Source: Paecilomyces variotii (taxonomy: Eukaryota). From it: a stretch of DNA of 20,000 nucleotides. The position numbers and the translations under genes were made by a program. The DNA lies in the NCBI GenBank assembly GCA_004022145.1, contig RCNU01000028.1; one strand, given 5' to 3'. Below the pieces are notes generated by a model. That model was not told the DNA's origin and searched no databases. It saw only the letters and a program-made list of their open reading frames with translations. Positions 1-9,994 of the stretch are shown here, piece after piece; the first letter of the stretch is position 1; each line of letters begins with the position of its first letter.

Positions 1-1736
1 CTCTAAAAAAAGCTTTTATTAAAGTTAAGCTATTAATTAATTATTTAAAAGTATAGAAATATTAAGCAGTATTATATATAAACCTAGAATCTTTACTATA
101 AGATATATAGAGGAATAAGTTAATAAATTAAGGTAGAATTTATATTTTTATAAGATATATTAAGAGAATAAATAAATAATAGAAAGTTTAGGCTCTAGAT
201 ATAAAAAAGACTATTAAGACTTATTAAGCTAAGTTCTTTAAAAATAAACTAAGAAGAGATCTAGATCTTAAGATTCTCTAAAGATTATTACTAAATATAG
301 TACTAATAAGAAACTTAAGAGATTAACTAGTAACTTAGCTTATTACCTTAAGTATATATATATATTCTTAAATAAAAAAGAGAATAATATTAATAATTAG
401 GAGAAGAGTTATAAAGAAGTTTTAGCTTTTCTTTAAAAGGAAAATAAAGTTTTTTATTAAAAAGAAATTAAAATATTTTATTATAATAAAATTAAGGAAT
501 AAGAGAAAATATTTAATTATTCTTACTTTAATAACTTAAATAATTATAAGAACTTATAGATAAACTCCCTATTTTAACTAAGTAAATAAGTTATATTTTA
601 TATAGAGATTCTCTAGCTAGTAAAGATCTCTTATATAGTAAAGTATAAGAGAGAGAAAGTTAAGTTACTAGATAATAAATAAAATACTAAGAAGTTATAT
701 TAAGCAATATTTATATTAAATCTCTTACCTCTAGATATTAATATAGACTAAGAGAAGTATATAGAATAAGTATTAAATACTATAATAGTAATATATATAG
801 TAAAGGAATATATTTTAATCTTAAACTTATATTATACTATAATTAATAACTTTACTTAAAGTAAATTATAGTAGAATATATTTAAAGCTAAAATAAATAT
901 ACTCTAAGTAAATAAAATTTTTAAAATAGTTATATTATTACTAAAAGCTAATATTATAATTAACTATTAAGTATTAGCTATAAAATATAACCTAGATAAT
1001 TCTCTTTAAAAGCTTAAGATATATCTTATTACTTAAGAGTTTACTTAGAAATATAGTATTAATTTTAAGTATACCTTTATTCTTATCTTATAATATAATA
1101 TACTATAAGTATTCTTAGCTATTATTATAATAGAGAATTATAAGTATTATACTATAAATATTAATAATACCTTTATAGAGTTAATATTAAAAGAGAAGAT
1201 TTATATAATACTTTTATTAAGAATAAATATACTATTAAAAATAATACTAAAAGTTTTTTAATCTCTATATAGTTTAAAATAAGCTATAAGAGATTAAAAT
1301 TAAACTTATATAAAAATACTTTAAAAAATAAGTTTTATATAAACTAATATTAATTTATACTTATTATAGCACTTAAAGAAAGAGATCTTACTCTTAATAT
1401 ATATTAATAATATCTTAATTAATATAAAATAAATAAAGAATATTTATTAATTTAAATAAGAGTTTAAATTAATATATAAAATAAAGAATCTAGAAGAAAT
1501 AAAGAAAATTCTTAGTATTTAAGTTATTTAAAATAAGAAGGATTAAATATTAATAATAGACTAATCTTATTATATTAAAGAACTCTTATTATAATATAGA
1601 ATAAGTAAGAAAAAAATATATTTAGTTAATATCTTATTAAATAAATATAACTCTTTAAAACTATTTAGTCCTTAAGATAAAAGAGTAAATTAGAGAAAGT
1701 ATTAAAGAATTATTAATAGCTTAATTTACTTAATAA

Positions 1737-2231
1737 TAGAGTAGTTATATAGGCGGTTCGGTTCGGTTCAGGGGGGGGGTTAAACCGCCCGTAGCGGTTT
1801 TCGGTTCGGGGCAGATAAACCGTACCTGAACCGAACCGTATACTAGTAGTTCGGTTTAAAACCAAAAAAACCGGATCGGCATAATTAGTTACTAACCTAA
1901 GTTAGATCCGGTTATATAACTATGCTCTAGCTATATTAGGATAAATAAGCGAAAATTACAATACCGTAATTTACCGATTTCTAATATATTTTTATTATAT
2001 ATACTAAATACTATAGTAATTTTATACCTCCGATATAAGTATCGATAAATTACATAGTGTAATTTAAATACGAGGTTAAAATTACGGTTCAAATGGTTTA
2101 AACCAAAAACTACCGGTTCGGTTCGGTTCTAGTAGACTCGCACCGCGGTTTACTAGGAAGCGAACCAAACCGAACTATGGGCGGTTCGGTTCGGTTCGGT
2201 TCGGTTTTTTCGGTTTACTATAACTACTCTA
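1737..2231. mobile_element. Non-autonomous hAT-superfamily element / MITE (495 bp)
   Basis: Perfect 13-bp TIR tagagtagttata (1737-1749) / tataactactcta (2219-2231); perfect 8-bp TSD cttaataa (1729-1736, 2232-2239); subterminal (CGGTT)n clusters at both ends. An 8-bp TSD and (C/T)AG termini are hAT hallmarks. No ORF. Confidence 0.9.
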
Positions 2232-2699
2232 CTTAATAATTTTAATAAGACTAGATATTATATTTATAATAGGTAAATTAAGTTAATATTTATTAAATCT
2301 ATTTAAAAAGTATTTTAAGATATTAAAGTCTTTTATAAAATACTTATAATTAATTATATATCTTAGTCTTAAGTTTAATATAAACTAAGACTAATAATTT
2401 ATTAAGTACTTAGACTTAGATAGGCATATACCTCGGCCTAGCTGGGGCCAAGCTTAGCCCATCCTAGGAGCTTAGCCCACCCTAGAGCTCATCCTTAGCT
2501 AGGTTGAGCTTAACCTACCTTATATATAGATTAAGTATAAGCTCAGTATAAGCCGATTATATAATTAATATAAGGTTAGCCTATTTAAGGATTAATAATA
2601 ATATTTATATAATAAAACTCTTTAGAATTTATAATATATATATATAATAGCTAATATAAAGCTAAATACTATTACTTTTTCCCTAAATACCTAAAAATA

Positions 2700-5600
2700 G
2701 CTAAAAACTAAGTAACTATAACTAATAGCTAAGTTAATAATATTTTTAATTAATAGCTACATAATATTTCTGTCTAAGTATATTAATATAATTCTTATAG
2801 AGGCCTAGCAGATACTAAATATATACTTAGTATTTATTATATTTAAACTAGATACTAACTTATTATAAAGTAAACTTATATAGAACTATAACCTTTATAA
2901 AGTATACCTAAACTAGTTTAAGAATATAATAAGTAATTAAAATAATGTCTATTCCTATATAAAAAGCGAAGATAAATAGAACTATAACCTTTATAAAGTA
3001 TACCTAAACTAGTTTAAGAATATAATAAGTAATTAAAATAATGTCTATTCCTATATAAAAAGCGAAGATAAAAAATTTAAGATATATTCTAAATTTCCTC
3101 TTTATATAAGACTTAATTAAATATATTCTTTTTATATAAGTTTTAATAAGGCATATACTAAATATATCTAAGAGGCTATTTCTCTTATAGGTATTATTAT
3201 TAGCCGCAGTAGTATCTCTAAGATTATAGTTAATAATATTTAGGATAAGTTATTTATTCTTAAATATCTAATAACTTATTTTAGTAATATCTTGCATTTT
3301 ATCTATTAAAAGAATTTTTTACCTTATAATTATTCTAGTATAAATATCTATTAAATATTTTAATAACTTTTATTAAAGGTATATCTATACCTTATCTTAA
3401 GCAGATGTTTAATATATTATAAGCATATGCTAAATATAGCTTAGATTTAGTTTGGGCTCTATACTTAAGGTAATTATAAAACCCTATCTCTCCTACTTCT
3501 TTAAAAGGATAAAAAAGATAAAATTTAAAGCAAGACATACTATTAGGCATATAAATACAGCAGTATTAAATATTATAAGTATATGCTAGAGTATATATTT
3601 AAACAATGCTATAAATATAGCTATATTAAACTAAATATCTTTAAAACGCTTTATAAAGAAGCAGGCTATACATTTGATATTATTTCTGCTAGTAAATTTC
3701 TTAAAAGAAAAACTGAAAATTAGTATAATAAATTTCTTTATTTTTAGAATTAATAATTAGCAGGGCATTATTTTTATCCAGAAAGTAAAATATAAATATG
3801 CTTAAATTAAACTCCGGTAATCTTTAAACAGTATAAAGTAAGTTTAACTCTATATTTGATTTTAGCATATGCTAAATATATTCTTAGCTACCAGTTACCT
3901 TTATCGGTTGCCTATTAATAAGTGATTTTAAACTATAGTATATTGTATAAGCTATCTCTATATATATAGCTCAAATTTATATGCCTTATCTATATACCTT
4001 AGTAGCTTATAGGATATATAATACTAATACTCCTATTTAATCTATTTATACCTATATTAACTATATTATTTTAAGGCGTATAACTTATAGTAGGTATTTG
4101 CTCTATATATACTAGGCATATACTAACTATAGGTCTAGGATTTAACCACTCTTAAGGTATATCTAAAGTCCTATATAAAGAATATAATGCTTTAATTAAT
4201 ATTTTTATTCCTTATAATTAAGATTATTTTCCTTTTATCCTTCTTATTTATTAAGAAGATTATATATATTTTCCTCTATTACTAACTAAGTTAAGTTAAG
4301 ATTTTGCTTAAGAACTTATAGATCTAATTAACTAAAGAGATATTCTTACTATAATTATGCGTATATTATATATACCTTAAGCCTGCATTCTGCATATGCT
4401 AACCAGATACTTATAGATAAATTCTTAATATCTCCCGAAGTATATACATTTAAATAAAAGTATTAAAATTAAGCTCTAAATTTAATTAGAGCTTCTTTAA
4501 ATATTAAGGATAAAATTGCTTATTTAATTTAAAAATAAAAACTTCTATAATACCTATTTAGTTCAGATATTGCTAGTTAGAATCTATTCTTACTATATGT
4601 TTTATATATATTAATATTATATAGAGGTTATACAAGAGTATAAGTTTAATCAACACAGAGAAAATAATAAATAATAGATTTGCGCAGTTAATATTAGTAA
4701 AACTAGAGAATATATTATTATTTATTATATAAATGCTTAAGTAAAAGCATTTATAAAAGCTAAATATCTTAAAATAGATTTAGCTTATAAGATAATACTT
4801 AAAAATATAAATGTCTTTTTAATCTTAAGCTAGAATTCTAAAGCTAGATATATATTTAACTTCTCCTTATTATATGTTTAGCATATACTGACTTTATATT
4901 AGGGATTAATACTTATTGCTATACTTTTATCTCTCTATAAACTTATTATATATATTTTTAAATATTTAAATTACTATTTTAAATATTATTATAAGCTGCA
5001 TATTAATATATTTAATAGGCATATATTTTAAATAAAGAAGGGATATAGACTGTTACTATAAATATATATAAGAAATAAGTACTTAGTTAGTATTATCTTA
5101 ATAAATACAGAGTATATGCTAAATATATTTAGGCTTTAATAACTACTTATATTCTATTTATCCTTCCCTTAACTGGTAAGAATATTTTAAGTATATACTT
5201 ATCTTCTGCCAAATATATATTAAACACAATTTCTATAAGAAGTTTAAAAGATCTTATCCCTTTATCTATTAACTAAAATATCTATAGGATCTATATTCTT
5301 ACTAAGAAATCCTTTAAACTATATACTAATAGGGTGAGGAATATCTAAATATTAAAAAATAGCTTTAAAGTAAAATAAAACTATAGATTCTTACTGTATT
5401 ATTATAGGAAACATTAAAAATCTCTTTTAAATAATAGAGTTATACTTAAAAGTATATTAGATTATCTGAAAGTAGTTACTTCTAAGATAATTATAATATA
5501 GGGAGAAACCTATCTTTACTGGGGGCTATTTAACGGTACATCTATACTTAGCATATACTTAATATCTATCTAGCATAGATTAAATACTAATAAGGCTAAT

Positions 5601-6475
5601 TTATATTTAGTCTACAATAATATATAGAAGATATTACTAAATAACAAGAGCTTTTTAACTATAATATTAATAATATATAGCAAAACTATAGTAATATTAT
5701 GCGGATCTCCTAATAGATACAAAAAAACAATAAGATAAAAGTTTAATATGCCTTTAAATATATGCTGAACATATCTTTTAGACTAATAGAATTAAAGAGC
5801 TATTAATTATTAAATGAATCAATCTTATTTACTATTTAATCTTAATAATTCCTATAATATACCTTTAGATAATAGTAATAATCGATCTTCTGATAAAAAT
5901 GCTAATTTTAAGGTTATTTTAATATCTTTATCTAAACCTTCTGCTAAACATATACTAGCTAAAGATAAAATATCTATAGAGCATATACTAAGCAGAGGTT
6001 GAAGAAGGGGTTAACCTAGAGGTTCTGGTCATTGTCAGAGCTAAGTTTAATCTAGGACTAAGTAGACTAAGCTAAGCTCTGAAGAATTAGACTCAGATTA
6101 TATTTCTCAACGCAGATTAAGTGAAGAGCATATACTAAACAGAGGTTAAAAAAGGGGTAGATCTAGAGGTTCTAGTTATATTTAAGGCTAGGTTCGATTT
6201 AATACTATCCTAATACCTAGAAGGGTTTAAACCTCTTTATTAAATTTAGATAGCTCTGCTAGTTCTAATCTAAAGTATATATTAACTCTATATCCGGCAT
6301 ATATTATCTAGGAGTTAAGTATAGATTCTAGATAGAATAGAGCTTATATACGCTATAGCAGAGGACCCTTATTAGAAGAAATAGCAGAGACTAATTTTGC
6401 TATTTAATTAAGAGAAATAATAGAATAAAGGCAATAAGAATTTAAGTAAGAAAGAGAAGGATTATTACAGTAGTT
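2700..6475 (+). pseudogene. Intron-rich MULE-type DDE transposase, destroyed by RIP (start approximate)
   Basis: Inferred motifs: 'YLEMDLAYKM' (D at 4777-4779); 'GIRTVTMDMCKKQAPG' (D codon 5061-5063, now aat); 'HILIFCQxH' (C at 5207-5209); 'LSESSHF' (E at 5468-5470). This is the D..D..CxxH..E order of Mutator transposases. Splicing gttagt..ag (5086-5132) keeps the frame; another intron at 3838-3887. The C-terminus has an RGRPRG-like basic repeat (5991-6030) and an E/Q/R-rich tail. Confidence 0.75.
2880..3072 (+). repeat. Perfect 96-bp tandem duplication inside the MULE
   Basis: 2881-2976 is identical to 2977-3072 (tagaactataacc...aagcgaagataaa). Confidence 0.95.
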
Positions 6476-6599
6476 TATATAATAAATATATATATCTATA
6501 TAGCTATAGTTATATAGTAAATATATATATATATTTCCTTTTCCCCTATAATAAGAATAAATAAAAAATAAAGAATATTGTATTATAATTATTTAAAGA

Positions 6600-8400
6600 T
6601 ACAGAAAAACAGTCTTTAAGTATAAGAACTTAGCATTGAACTGAAGTTCGGTATTAACAATCTTTAAGTATAAGAGCTTAGTATTAAACTAAAGTTCAGC
6701 ATCGAGCATATGCTCGGGGGAGAGCTAGGCTTAAATATTTATATATTTAAGGCCTCTGAAAACTTATCCTTAGAAGAGGAGATTATAACTTATAGATATA
6801 AACTCAGCATATACTCTGCGTATAAAAGAGAAGAACTTATTAATAAACTTAGCACTGCAGCTATTAATACTATAAGGATATCTATAGCTACAATTATAAG
6901 CACAATTATACTTTAATTTAGTTGGTATTTCTTTATCGGCAGTATATCTACTTATATATTTATTATAAGATATAAACCATCCGCGCTTTAATAGAGTTAA
7001 GGCAAGACCTATATTATAACCTAGTTCAGCATATGCGCAAGATAAATTAGAAGGCTACTTACTATTATTTCTATCATTATTATCTTGCGGCAATAGGATA
7101 TTTCTAGTCTATATAAGGTTAGTATATATATAACGCAGGCAGGGGTATATTTACTGTGCGCTTATAAGATAAGGTTAATAAAGATATAGGATGCTAGAAC
7201 AAAGGCCAAGATTAGTTAAAGTTAATATTGGGCATATGCTGAATATATCTAAAAAGCCTGCTGAGAGTTATAAGTTATATATAAATAGTAATATAAATGG
7301 CAATATAAATGGCAAAGAAGATAGTATATAGATCCTATTTATATATTAGCATATGCTAAACTTATTCTCCGATAAAACTAGCTTTTATAGCTGTTTCTGA
7401 ACTCATTATTAGTGCAAGCTACTTTTTTACAGGATGTAGCAATACTCTTAATTAGCATGCTTCCTATATTAGAAGAAATATTAGCTTAATATAAGCTCTA
7501 TATATGCCTAAGACTTACTATAGTTTATAAATAAAGTCGGCGTCTTGCTATTTGCTAAGTAAAACATATTTAATTAGTATACTGTATATTATTAGCATAG
7601 CTCTAGTATATATAGAACAGATCCTAAACTTACTATAGCCTAATTATCTTCTTATCTATAATTATATTATTAGTCTCTATATTGCGGTTTAATGCTACAG
7701 CAGATTAGTATATATTTAATATATATTAAGGATAATAACATACTCGCCCCTAAGTATATAGTCCTTATATAGTGTTGTAACTTTAACTGTCAGCATATTA
7801 TATATATATAGAACTTATATTAGACTTACAGCAGGCTATAAATTAATAATCTTACTATATATAAGCAGGCTATCTGCGTTTACTTATACTCAGCAACTAT
7901 AGAAGCTCAGTATATGCTTGGTTAATTTTAAAGAAAGGACTTATATATTCCTGTTTATGCTTAAGATAAAAGACCTAAGGATCAGCATGCGGGCATTTTC
8001 CTCAGCGGTAATTGCAGGCACTATCTATATTTAGTATGCTTTCAGCATATGTGCAATATCTGCTTACTAGATTTCTTATTTTCCTGCTTAGCTGTAGTGT
8101 GCGAGTCTAGGATCTATATTAGATTTAGGTTAAGAACTGGGCCTATTTTTATTTAGCATATGCTTAATATTAAGCAGAGATGTACTTACTATAATAATAC
8201 CTGTAGTTTGTTGGATTACCTGCTAATAAAACTACATTGCAGGTAAGGAGTTCCTTTAAATATAGCAGTATTTTTGTGGTTGTACAGCAGTAATATAAGA
8301 GGGTGGACTGTAATACTATAGAGGCAGAGTGAAGGTGTTATTAGGGAGGTTGAAGATAATATAAATAATGTGAACTTCTATGCGATAGGATTCTAACGTC
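6600..8400 (-). pseudogene. Second, convergent, multi-intron gene of the MULE; product unrecognised (ends approximate)
   Basis: Run of ~47-55-bp minus-strand introns with GTAAG(T/C) donors (seen on + as acttac/gcttac) and YAG acceptors: 8143-8189, 8021-8067, 7897-7944 (donor RIP-hit), 7781-7829, 7582-7633, 7464-7518, 7009-7062. Short exons read e.g. 'IDPRLAHYS' and 'PAITAEENARMLIL'. Confidence 0.6.
6613..6705. repeat. Imperfect 48-bp tandem duplication
   Basis: tctttaagtataagaacttagcattgaactgaagttcgg (6613) versus tctttaagtataagagcttagtattaaactaaagttcag (6661); the differences are transitions. Confidence 0.85.
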
Positions 8401-9271
8401 GCTTCAGCATATGCTTAATAACCGCCTTTACATATACCGCCTTAGTAAACTGCGCAGAATAATATCAGTTTTAGCTCCCTATATATATCCCAGCGTTGCT
8501 CTGACCTATGCTTAGCATATGCTGCAATACGGCACAGAGCATATGCTATATACAGTTCCTGACAAATATAGTTTATTGCAATATAATATGAAAACTTTAT
8601 TATGAGTTATATAAGCTATATATATGCTAAGCCCACCCAAACGCTATACTGAAACTAACTTAGTATCTGAGCTAAACCTAGATTTTTCTTAGGTGGGCTG
8701 AGCTTTTCAAGTAGGCTAAGCTTAGCCCCGGCTGGGCCGAGCTATATCCCGGACTTAGATTATATAATAGATAAGATTAATTAGATATTAATCTTAGAGA
8801 ATATTTTTACTTTAACTAAAAGCTTAATAAGCTAATTAAATAAAAAATAAAAGTTTATTATAATTTTAACTATAAAGGCTAAATATATAGCTATATATTA
8901 AGCTATAAAGTAGTCTTAATAATTAGCCCTTCTTTTAAGAGATATAAGATATAAATACTATATTAGTCTAAATAAATTTAAGCTAATAATAAGAGAAAAA
9001 TAAGCTTTTATTATTAATTCTCTAGTTAAAATCTATAGAGATAACTAAGTATTATTATTACTAATTAAAGATACCTATATTTATAAAAGGTTAAAGTATA
9101 TTAATATTATATATTACTATATATATAACTTATATTAAAAGAATAAAATTAATATTAAGTTTATTAGAATATAGAATATAATAGTAAATAATTTTACTAA
9201 ACTACTATTAAAAACAGACTTCTTAAAATTTTTAAGTTAACTAAGATTAACTAACTTAATAAGTATAAATT

Positions 9272-9600
9272 AAGGAGAAGTATTATAAAATAGTAATTAA
9301 GACTAATAAATTCTAATATAATAAAGATTTTATTTTAAGAAAATCTTTAAGAATAATTTTACTTTAATAAAATTAAGCAGCTTTAAAAAACTATTTCTTA
9401 AGCTTTATTTAAAATCTATTGCCCTAACTAAGAATATATAAATATACTTAATATCTACTATATGTGCTAATACTTTTTCTCCCTAATTATTATTAGCCCT
9501 TTAAGTTAATTAAATAGTCTAGGGAATTTTATTTAAATCTATTCTTTTTAACTTTTTTTAATTAAAAAGATTAAGTTAAAGTTTTAATTATAAAATAATA
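9272..9600 (+). repeat. Polypurine tract and start of the 3' LTR of copia copy A (right end not determined)
   Basis: aaggagaag (9272-9280) follows the pol end and is immediately followed by tattata (RIP-mutated TGTT...) at 9281. The end coordinate is a guess. Confidence 0.45.
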
Positions 9601-9667
9601 TTATTATTAATAATATTAAATAATTAAAATTATTAGTAAAATAAAGTATTATTTAAAGAGACTATAT

Positions 9668-9994
9668 TATTATACTTCTTATAGAGATAATAATAGTTAA
9701 AAAGAATAGAGAATAAAATAACTTTTTATACTAGCTTTAAAAGAAAGTATAACTTAAAATAAGAATAAAGTATAAGAAATAGAACTAATACTAATATATC
9801 TTTATAATATAATTAGTTAATTATATTAAGTTAGTTAAGTTCTTCTCTTAAGCTAATATACTTACTATAAGAATTCTTCTATTAAGCTAACTATTTTCTA
9901 TAACTATATATATAATTATTTTAGACTTTTTTATAAGAGAACTTCTTATATATTCTCTTTATAAACTGCTAGTTTTAACTGCTATATTATAATA
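9668..9994 (-). repeat. Putative 3' LTR of copia copy B (~327 bp)
   Basis: On the minus strand it begins tattata directly after the PPT and ends tataata at 9668 (RIP-mutated TG...CA inverted ends). The far end is inferred from that short inverted repeat only. Confidence 0.5.

Follow-up and report, generated by a model that had tools for sequence, protein, structure and literature searches.

A dispersed palindrome associated with intron branch sites in a putative Mutator-like transposon of Paecilomyces variotii

Why should one short palindrome recur throughout the interior of a transposon, in both of its genes and mostly within their introns? The question is raised by a 20,000-nt stretch of the Paecilomyces variotii genome (contig RCNU01000028.1 of assembly GCA_004022145.1; hereafter the window), in which a transposon with terminal inverted repeats (TIRs), 6330 bp in length, multicopy in its genome and altered by repeat-induced point mutation (RIP), occupies positions 2422-8751 (GC 0.25; CA/TG observed/expected 0.5). 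An earlier note on this DNA had described the palindrome as a mark of a whole Mutator-like element (MULE) that often coincides with intron branch points. We conclude that the palindrome is a real cis-element, common to the window's element and a related element of another fungus, and, because the related element has it too, that it is probably functional. Binding sites in transposon ends are well known; an internal, element-wide palindrome at nearly every branch site, kept across two diverged fungal families, would differ from these. If true, this would represent either a new form of transposon self-marking or regulation, or a transposon-specific splicing signal.

Abundance of the palindrome within the element

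The 10-mer AGCATATGCT occurs eight times (3422, 3864, 6705, 7348, 8155, 8406, 8514 and 8538), whereas dinucleotide shuffles expect 0.02 copies and none of 200 shuffles reached eight. The 8-mer GCATATGC is present in 11 copies, three of them beyond the 10-mers (4392, 7029 and 7232), compared with 0.17 copies expected from shuffles and a largest shuffled value of 2. Forms that deviate by one transition, GCATATAC or GTATATGC, are found at exactly 11 places (2424, 3151, 3579, 4116, 4881, 5112, 5551, 5981, 6128, 6807 and 7910). Every position given in the earlier note was thus correct (8/8 AGCATATGCT, three extra GCATATGC and 11 one-transition forms), and only a twelfth one-transition copy, GCATATGT at 8045, had been missed. 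All copies fall within the element, with a density of about one per 250-400 bp over both genes and none conserved in the TIRs. The enrichment also stays if the background is matched to the element's own trinucleotides and its GCA/TGC bias, a check that the note had called for: Markov models of order 1 to 3, which were trained on the element itself and so include this bias, gave means of 0.05-0.35 8-mers with a largest value of 3 (300 simulations each), compared with the 11 observed. Orders 4 and 5 expect 1.8-8.8 copies, as such orders learn the motif itself.

Two of the earlier statements fared less well. The copy GCATATAC at the left terminus (2424-2431) is probably not a true copy, the right TIR reading GGATATAG and the terminus of the related element GGGGTCGCAG. 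The reported absence from the flanking DNA stands as an observation, neither the exact motif nor its GCATATAC/GTATATGC forms being present in 1-2421, in 8752-11900 or in the GC-rich part of the window, but it has little value as a control: with 18 and 16 CpA+TpG in total, the flanks are nearly depleted of these dinucleotides and thus cannot carry the word. The RIP-surviving form RYATATRY reaches 9.8/kb in the element versus 2.9 and 1.3/kb in the flanks, and is thus 3-8 times denser in the element. Among the 304 CpA that survive on both strands of the element, 149 stand as GCA and 44 as GCATAT. The possible RIP intermediates GCACATGC, GCATGTGC and GCACGTGC have zero occurrences each, and the central ATAT is therefore ancestral and not made by RIP. 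A string search of the literature for the motif returned only unrelated contexts (primers, sites in other organisms), which is no proof that it has never been described.

Branch sites in two genes and in a related element

Most copies of the motif are built into the branch sites of short introns, on the + strand in the left gene (gene 1), where this is shown by protein-guided frames, and on the - strand in the right gene (gene 2), where it is predicted from splice signals only; the coincidence with branch points proposed earlier is borne out to this extent. Fungal branch sites follow the consensus RCTRAC, and the right half of the palindrome yields TGCTRA(Y), an ordinary branch site for a fungus. 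Against a background frequency of 0.065, TRA extends the 8-mer on the + strand at 9 of the 11 sites in the gene 1 region, and at 8 of the 11 sites in the gene 2 region it does so on the - strand; because the right half together with TRA(Y) is the branch site, this extension follows the sense strand of each gene. The branch site is located 8-17 nt before the acceptor, and seven sites have a donor 26-27 nt ahead of the motif, strict in five cases and changed by RIP in two. This is the arrangement expected of a spliceosomal branch site (CTRAY a few to about 30 nt before a YAG acceptor on the sense strand, with a GT donor upstream), and a strict scan within the genes detected two such introns on the + strand and seven on the - strand.

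Gene 1 (+ strand, about 3120-6200, outer limits approximate), which is broken by RIP stops and appears to encode a Mutator/IS256-like transposase, was delimited by tblastn of the homologous proteins P0012, P0015 and P0020. Its coding blocks are 4147-4362 (frame 1), 4419-4574 (frame 3), 4627-4866 (frame 1), 4905-5075 (frame 3) and 5132-5536 (frame 2), with a weak additional block at 3178-3738 (match to P0015). The frame changes at 4363-4418, 4575-4626, about 4867-4910 and 5075-5131, each gap being 44-57 nt long and showing GT..CTRA..YAG signals. The motif is present in three of these four gaps (4392, 4881 and 5112) and also in the introns just before and just after this stretch (4116 and 5551). 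Since the frame changes fall within motif-bearing gaps, the gaps are short introns of 43-57 nt; they interrupt the frame of the homologous protein, and the related element has inserts of 17-18 codons, or changes of frame, at the matching places.

At the 5' side of gene 1, GCATATAC followed by TAA (3151-3158) lies in a predicted intron or in the 5' part of the gene, and GCATATGC followed by TAA (3423-3430) lies in a predicted intron, at which the window has extra residues within the weak P0015 match; the 45 nt around it are 73% similar to the - strand intron 8189-8143 (repeat pair I2). GCATATGC at 3865-3872 is part of the 14-nt palindrome TTAGCATATGCTAA within intron 3838-3887 (strict scan; donor 27 nt upstream), and GCATATAC followed by TAAC at 4116-4123 belongs to intron 4090-4132 (strict scan), right after which a coding block begins and whose counterpart in the relative has GCATATACTGAG. 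The next intron (about 4363-4418; frame 1 to 3) contains GCATATGC followed by TAAC at 4392-4399, and an insert of 18 codons is found there in the relative. Another 18-codon insert corresponds to the intron at about 4867-4910 (dominant frame 1 to 3) with GCATATAC and TGAC at 4881-4888; in this insert, GCATATGC stands 10 nt ahead of GGCTAAT. GTATATGC followed by TAAA (5112-5119) is located in the intron at about 5075-5131 (frame 3 to 2), which matches positions 1501-1547 of the related locus L073, containing GCATATGCTAAT. In the intron at about 5537-5582, before which the coding block stops at 5536, the window has GCATATAC (5551-5558) and the relative GCATATGC. Some copies are also present in exons, which fits the earlier suggestion of a placement wherever coding allows: GTATATGC at 3579-3586, within the P0015 match and without TRA extension, is probably exonic (K-Y-M-L), as is GCATATAC at 5981-5988 (E-H-I-L), judged from the translation. 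The latter belongs to a duplicated segment (5975-6150) whose second motif copy is at 6128-6135. Joints that step back 145/105 nt in contigs of DNA and RNA libraries demonstrate that this segment, with one motif per copy, varies in copy number among copies of the element.

Gene 2 (- strand, about 6680-8600, limits approximate) is predicted from splice signals only, with seven strict GT..CTRA..YAG intervals of 43-55 nt between 8189 and 7009. Neither a six-frame Pfam search nor a translated comparison with the related loci L027 and L062 revealed a homologue of its product, the best E values of the latter (0.004-0.02) being not convincing. Along its sense strand, a first predicted intron (about 8553-8506) contains two copies (8515 and 8539; 8515-8546), the - strand reading GTATATAGCATATGCTCTGTGCCGTATTGCAGCATATGCTAAGCATAG. 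Further copies of GCATATGC are followed by TGAAG in a predicted intron (8407-8414), by TAAA in intron 8189-8143 (8156-8163; strict scan) and by TGAAC in intron 7062-7009 (7029-7036; strict scan, donor 26 nt upstream). At 8045-8052 the - strand has ACATATGC and TGAA (intron 8067-8025, strict scan), and at 7910-7917 it has GCATATAC and TGAG in a predicted intron whose donor, 27 nt ahead of the motif, is ATAAGT as a result of RIP. Predicted introns also contain GCATATGC within TTAGCATATGCTAA (7349-7356), GTATATGC followed by TGAG on the - strand (6807-6814) and, in the predicted last intron, GCATATGC 5 nt ahead of GATGCTGAAC..TTTAG (6706-6713). The strand context of GCATATGC at 7232-7239 is ambiguous, as its TGA extension occurs on the + strand only.

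Two food-fermentation metatranscriptome libraries (runs X19 and X20) contained 190-548 contig pieces of the element family, which may stem from transcribed mutated copies or from carried-over DNA. Joints of about 50 nt were absent from these runs, and one RNA-library contig spans 7713-8543 without gaps; these contigs are uninformative on splicing because they come from RIP-mutated copies, maybe as DNA carry-over. Two contigs, one from DNA run X1 and the other from RNA-library run X19, match 8142-8192 alone, that is, the predicted intron 8189-8143; their 255-nt flanks have an ordinary G+C content and fit nothing else in the element. They may stem from an unmutated relative of gene 2 or from another gene with a sister intron.

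To find relatives, a metagenome collection was scanned for GTAAGT followed by a gap of 15-45 nt and AGCATATGCTAA, a pattern by which one motif copy per locus was preselected, and about 3 kb per related locus were examined. At least 119 loci were retrieved. Among the matches listed, ten loci with one contig-name prefix contain up to seven motif copies in 3 kb, and all ten matches listed from this one metagenome are copies of the element family; the remaining 109 have one copy each in 107 cases and two copies in two (L071 and L085), which is the chance level. L085 was rejected as a related locus, being a chance match in a bacterial- or phage-like coding stretch (...SAYANAYAS...). The ten loci represent one element family, 90-92% alike, in two overlapping parts, of which the first shows homology to 4047-5491 of the window (blastn E 1e-19 to 1e-27, identity 72-76%) and the second ends in the terminus GGGGTCGCAGCTCGGC, resembling the window TIR. 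These copies are less mutated than the window element (G+C 0.32-0.40). A search of the metagenome collection with the TIR pattern gave no match. L027 and L013 are linked to gene 2 because they overlap L056, L062 and L073 by 150-180 nt; a transition-tolerant local alignment of L027 with gene 2 was discarded as too permissive (568-592 versus 485-526 for block shuffles), and a dynamic-programming search for exon/intron paths on the related loci did not separate the strands (339-419 on both).

A related element with the same palindrome, of the kind that the earlier note had proposed to look for, thus exists: the relative carries GCATATGC, which ranks first among over-represented 8-mers both in the window's element and in each of the two groups of related loci. 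Longer palindromes of 12-14 nt, TAGCATATGCTA, to which the core is often extended, and TTAGCATATGCTAA, are likewise present in the window and in the relatives. Six matching introns could be compared, in which a motif-type 8-mer is found in all six of the relative and in five of the window, the sixth window intron having ATATATAT; the motif, exact or in a transition form, has been retained, and the remainder of the intron can no longer be aligned. The de-RIPed consensus of the relative (GC 0.43) has eight exact copies in 3 kb. Three of them lie in one exon, at 1606 (H-M-L), 1740 (S-I-C) and 1850 (A-Y-A), and thus in all three reading frames; those at 1740 and 1850 are intact in single loci. Three copies in 1189 exonic nt compare with about 0.02 expected from base composition by our own arithmetic. 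Exonic copies are subject to turnover, as only one of the three is common to the window (5191, now GTATATAC), and the window has exonic copies of its own (5981, 6128 and 3579). Overall, the motif reaches 17-26/kb in introns and 0-4/kb in exons, where base composition would lead to about 0.014/kb (own arithmetic). At L027 897-925, and on the reverse strand of L013, two motifs stand 12 nt apart and 140-170 nt inside the terminus, in what seems to be a short first intron; the pair at 8515 and 8539 is its counterpart in appearance in the window.

Possible roles of the palindrome

Our tentative preference is for a dyad-symmetric site that is kept dense in the element, is read as DNA by a dimeric factor and sits in introns, in which it also serves as branch site. 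Splicing does not require the left half, but in both families it is this half that makes the palindrome of 10-14 nt perfect. We infer a dimeric protein that binds double-stranded DNA because of the perfect two-fold symmetry, the exonic copies in three frames and the turnover of such copies, gained or lost, between the two families. Such a dimeric, sequence-specific protein would recognise the palindrome as double-stranded DNA; it might be the second protein of the element or the N-terminal part of its transposase, a host factor being a less likely candidate. Its binding could tag element copies or control them, for instance if it switched on transcription or opposed silencing, in a role that would be akin to that of VANC proteins reading VANDAL motifs, and a site lodged at the branch point would impose no extra sequence cost on the element.

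Several points weigh against this interpretation. We know of no binding protein for the palindrome, gene 2 has no homologue or domain detectable by Pfam or by translated comparison, and neither the TIRs nor clearly untranscribed DNA contain a conserved copy. We read about 15 of the window's 18 intronic copies as fused, in sense orientation, to a branch site, which is not what a pure DNA tag predicts. Density and conservation both differ in favour of introns (17-26/kb versus 0-4/kb in exons; 5-6 of 6 intronic copies conserved versus 1 of 3 exonic ones). In addition, the same palindrome occurs in two diverged families, while VANC systems are described as family-specific (PMC5735166).

It is also possible, though somewhat less likely, that the palindrome acts at the RNA level, as an extended branch site for very short introns that pairs with U2 snRNA or with an arm near the 5' splice site, exonic copies being incidental; efficient splicing would then keep transcripts from stalling on spliceosomes. 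The strand-coherent TRA extension in both genes, the coincidence of frame changes in gene 1 with motif introns, the donor 26-27 nt upstream in seven sites and the retention of a copy in five of six verified introns are all consistent with such a splicing element. Two introns of the relative fold with a stem between the 5' arm and the branch region (z -3.66 and -2.13), but the other 10 of the 12 introns folded are no more stable than their shuffles (only two have z below -2), and hairpins were rejected as a general explanation. In a pairing of our own with human U2, not that of the host, AGCAUAUGCUA(A)C pairs with the stretch GUAGUAUCUGUU at 11 of 12 positions, two of them G-U; however, the sole mismatch is the invariant centre of the palindrome (the central U), and the four of six identities in the left half have a chance of about 0.07 by our own estimate and are thus not beyond chance. 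Moreover, a branch site needs no dyad symmetry, exact copies in exons far exceed chance, and one matching intron of the relative has the motif 10 nt upstream of a separate branch site, GGCTAAT. A 12-nt probe together with mutants of the left versus the right half would separate a role in DNA binding from a role in splicing.

A relic of intron proliferation is unlikely. In this case, sister introns would descend from one symmetric ancestral intron that spread in both genes before the families split, and the palindrome would persist because half of it is the branch site. The uniform architecture of the introns (43-57 nt, donor 26-27 nt before the motif) is what common descent would produce, and the gene 1 intron 3392-3436 is 73% similar to the gene 2 intron 8150-8194 over 45 nt, although some likeness of AT-rich introns around a common 12-mer is to be expected. 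The core of L073 1501-1547 is nearly symmetric, with 26 of 32 positions matching its own reverse complement (own count), and the contig with ordinary-GC flanks matches just intron 8142-8192. A precedent is provided by sister (stw)introns of Hypoxylon, which carry a 10-nt palindrome, WTTCTAGAAA (PMC8469720). However, matching introns of two families have retained the left half, dispensable for splicing, whereas the rest of their sequence can no longer be aligned, and intron descent leaves the exonic copies unexplained.

Only a small chance is given to a bolder reading, in which the palindrome would be a private code: the element's own second protein or transposase would bind it as a dimer and, most sites lying over branch points, would thereby link the splicing of about 20 introns to the recognition of DNA or RNA as self, so that copies would be expressed only with their own factor and otherwise stay silent.

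We regard it as very unlikely that the fungus uses an extended branch site of this kind throughout its ordinary genes and that the element merely follows the host. A similar intron in one contig with ordinary-GC flanks would agree with this, but all ten matches listed from the relative's metagenome lie in the element family although contigs of that sample reach 131 kb, 107 of the other 109 loci among the matches listed have one copy and two have two (chance level), two intron-like stretches in the flank of the relative are without the motif, and the fungal branch-site consensus comprises merely RCTRAC. Finally, a by-product of RIP or base composition, that is, a word spared or created by RIP, is close to refuted: GCA makes up 149 of the 304 surviving CpA and the purine/pyrimidine alternation of the word survives transitions, but models based on the element's own tri- and tetranucleotides expect 0.15-0.35 copies, the RIP intermediates named above are absent, and the de-RIPed consensus of the less mutated relative still has its eight exact copies in 3 kb.

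The insertion, its surroundings and known systems

The element is flanked by a 9-bp target-site duplication, GACTTAGAT, with identical copies at 2413-2421 and 8752-8760, and its TIRs are located at 2422-2486 (+ strand) and 8687-8751 (- strand). They belong to an inverted pair of 88 nt (I1; 2399-2486 with 8687-8774), which includes the duplicated target site and is 70% complementary after RIP; in other copies of the element, positions 2439 and 2443 are C, and with these the match to the right TIR arm is regained. Empty sites are represented by contigs of the DNA runs X1 and X3 that join 2415 to 8755 and similar positions in other copies of the flanking repeat, and each DNA run contains 2799-3224 contig pieces that match the element and differ almost only by transitions. 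These empty-site joints and the thousands of transition-differing pieces demonstrate that the element is a true, highly repeated, RIP-mutated insertion. A target duplication in the range of about 9-11 bp and long TIRs (the 88-nt pair) are both features of the Mutator superfamily.

The assignment of the insertion to MULEs made earlier agrees with the duplication and the TIRs, and on the protein side it has weak evidence from homology and fold. A 162-residue open frame of L056 retrieved 79 proteins at E up to 0.001, including uncharacterised proteins of 566-969 residues in records of Aspergillus, Blastomyces, Penicillium and Eremomyces. No Pfam family was found in the six frames of the element (with X at stops), nor in L027 and L062. 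At E 0.01, no transposase family was detected in any of nine homologues; seven gave nothing, P0056 matched TPR repeat families and P0061 had one weak unrelated match. When four homologues were rescanned at E 10, PF10551 (MULE) appeared in P0015 alone, with 14.6 bits and E 0.047 (cut-off 27.6). The AlphaFold model of P0012 has a mean pLDDT of 60.9, with a core at 410-760 mostly at 70-95, and its five best matches in the PDB are all ISCth4 transposase of the IS256 family (E 0.004-0.013, probability 0.87-0.96, TM 0.26-0.30), none of which reaches E 0.001. Candidate catalytic D, D and E residues were picked by eye in P0012. Taken together, there is weak but consistent support for a Mutator/IS256-like product of gene 1.

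Structural variants of the element were also observed. A form with an internal deletion of about 1960 bp is present in the DNA runs X1 and X3, in which 3136-3145 is joined to 5108-5113; each break point is just before the end of a motif-bearing intron (3151 and 5112), and both ends are alike, so that motif regions may seed internal deletions. A 96-bp perfect tandem duplication (2880-3072; 2.0 copies, 100% identity) lies within heavily RIP-mutated DNA and probably arose later than the RIP mutations.

Bases 1-12000 of the window carry the signature of RIP, with 15-32% G+C, an excess of TpA (TpA/ApT 1.32-1.44) and, in the flanks, CpA/TpG at 0.05-0.14 of expectation; (CpA+TpG)/(ApC+GpT) amounts to 0.10 for the flanks versus 0.73 for the element, and in contigs of the DNA runs transitions dominate the differences among copies of the element. 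The top-ranked 8-mer of the flanks is CCGAACCG. In the left flank, CGGTT repeats at 2100-2210 form an unmutated, GC-bearing island, with (CGGTT)5 at 2182-2206 and more at 2110-2130. From 12000 to 20000, the window consists of a ribosomal DNA (rDNA) unit, so that the block of RIP-mutated transposons abuts the array. A GC-rich spacer (58-70% G+C before the 18S gene; sub-repeat units of about 44, 124 and 242 bp lie in 12537-14293) is followed by 18S (15363-17162), 5.8S (17348-17501) and the start of 28S rRNA (from 17675, cut by the window end).

Elements of the MuDR/MULE type have target duplications of 9-11 bp and long TIRs, and maize MuDR contains two convergent genes. The window element resembles them in its 9-bp duplication, its TIRs of about 65-88 nt, its two convergent genes and, tentatively, its transposase, whose homologue P0012 has an IS256-family enzyme as best structural match; it differs in having no Pfam MULE match at the cut-off and in its very high intron density. 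The string search of the literature yielded no report of a dispersed internal palindrome in such elements. A closer parallel for the motif might be found in the VANDAL elements of Arabidopsis, which are Mutator-like, encode genes besides the transposase and accumulate a short element-specific motif inside, mainly where coding allows. The window element, putatively of the Mutator superfamily as well, likewise has an extra gene and an element-specific short motif accumulated inside, the specificity with respect to host genes being assessed here indirectly. In contrast to VANDAL, the motif of the window element is a perfect palindrome, dispersed rather than arranged in tandem arrays and fused to branch sites; the host uses RIP and not RNA-directed DNA methylation, and a VANC-like reader is putative. 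Furthermore, VANC systems are described as specific to each family (PMC5735166), whereas the window and metagenome families, although diverged, both have GCATATGC.

Among fungal introns, the introner-like elements of Dothideomycetes are repeated introns with complete splice signals that exceed regular introns in length, are predicted to fold into stable structures and are spread over hundreds of host genes (PMC3609843). The introns described here share the repetition and the complete splice signals, but they are short (43-57 nt), fold better than shuffles in only 2 of 12 cases and occupy conserved positions in transposon genes. The sister (stw)introns of Hypoxylaceae are 93-207 nt long, have inverted repeats of 45-55 nt and reside in many host genes (PMC8469720). 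They are likewise a family of fungal spliceosomal introns with a common 10-nt palindrome and internal symmetry; their palindrome is located in the repeats and not at the branch site, whereas the introns of the window element belong, as far as seen, to one transposon family and have another palindrome, which is found at the branch site and in exons. The palindrome of this transposon thus provides a tractable case for studying how families of similar introns originate and why some of them carry palindromes.

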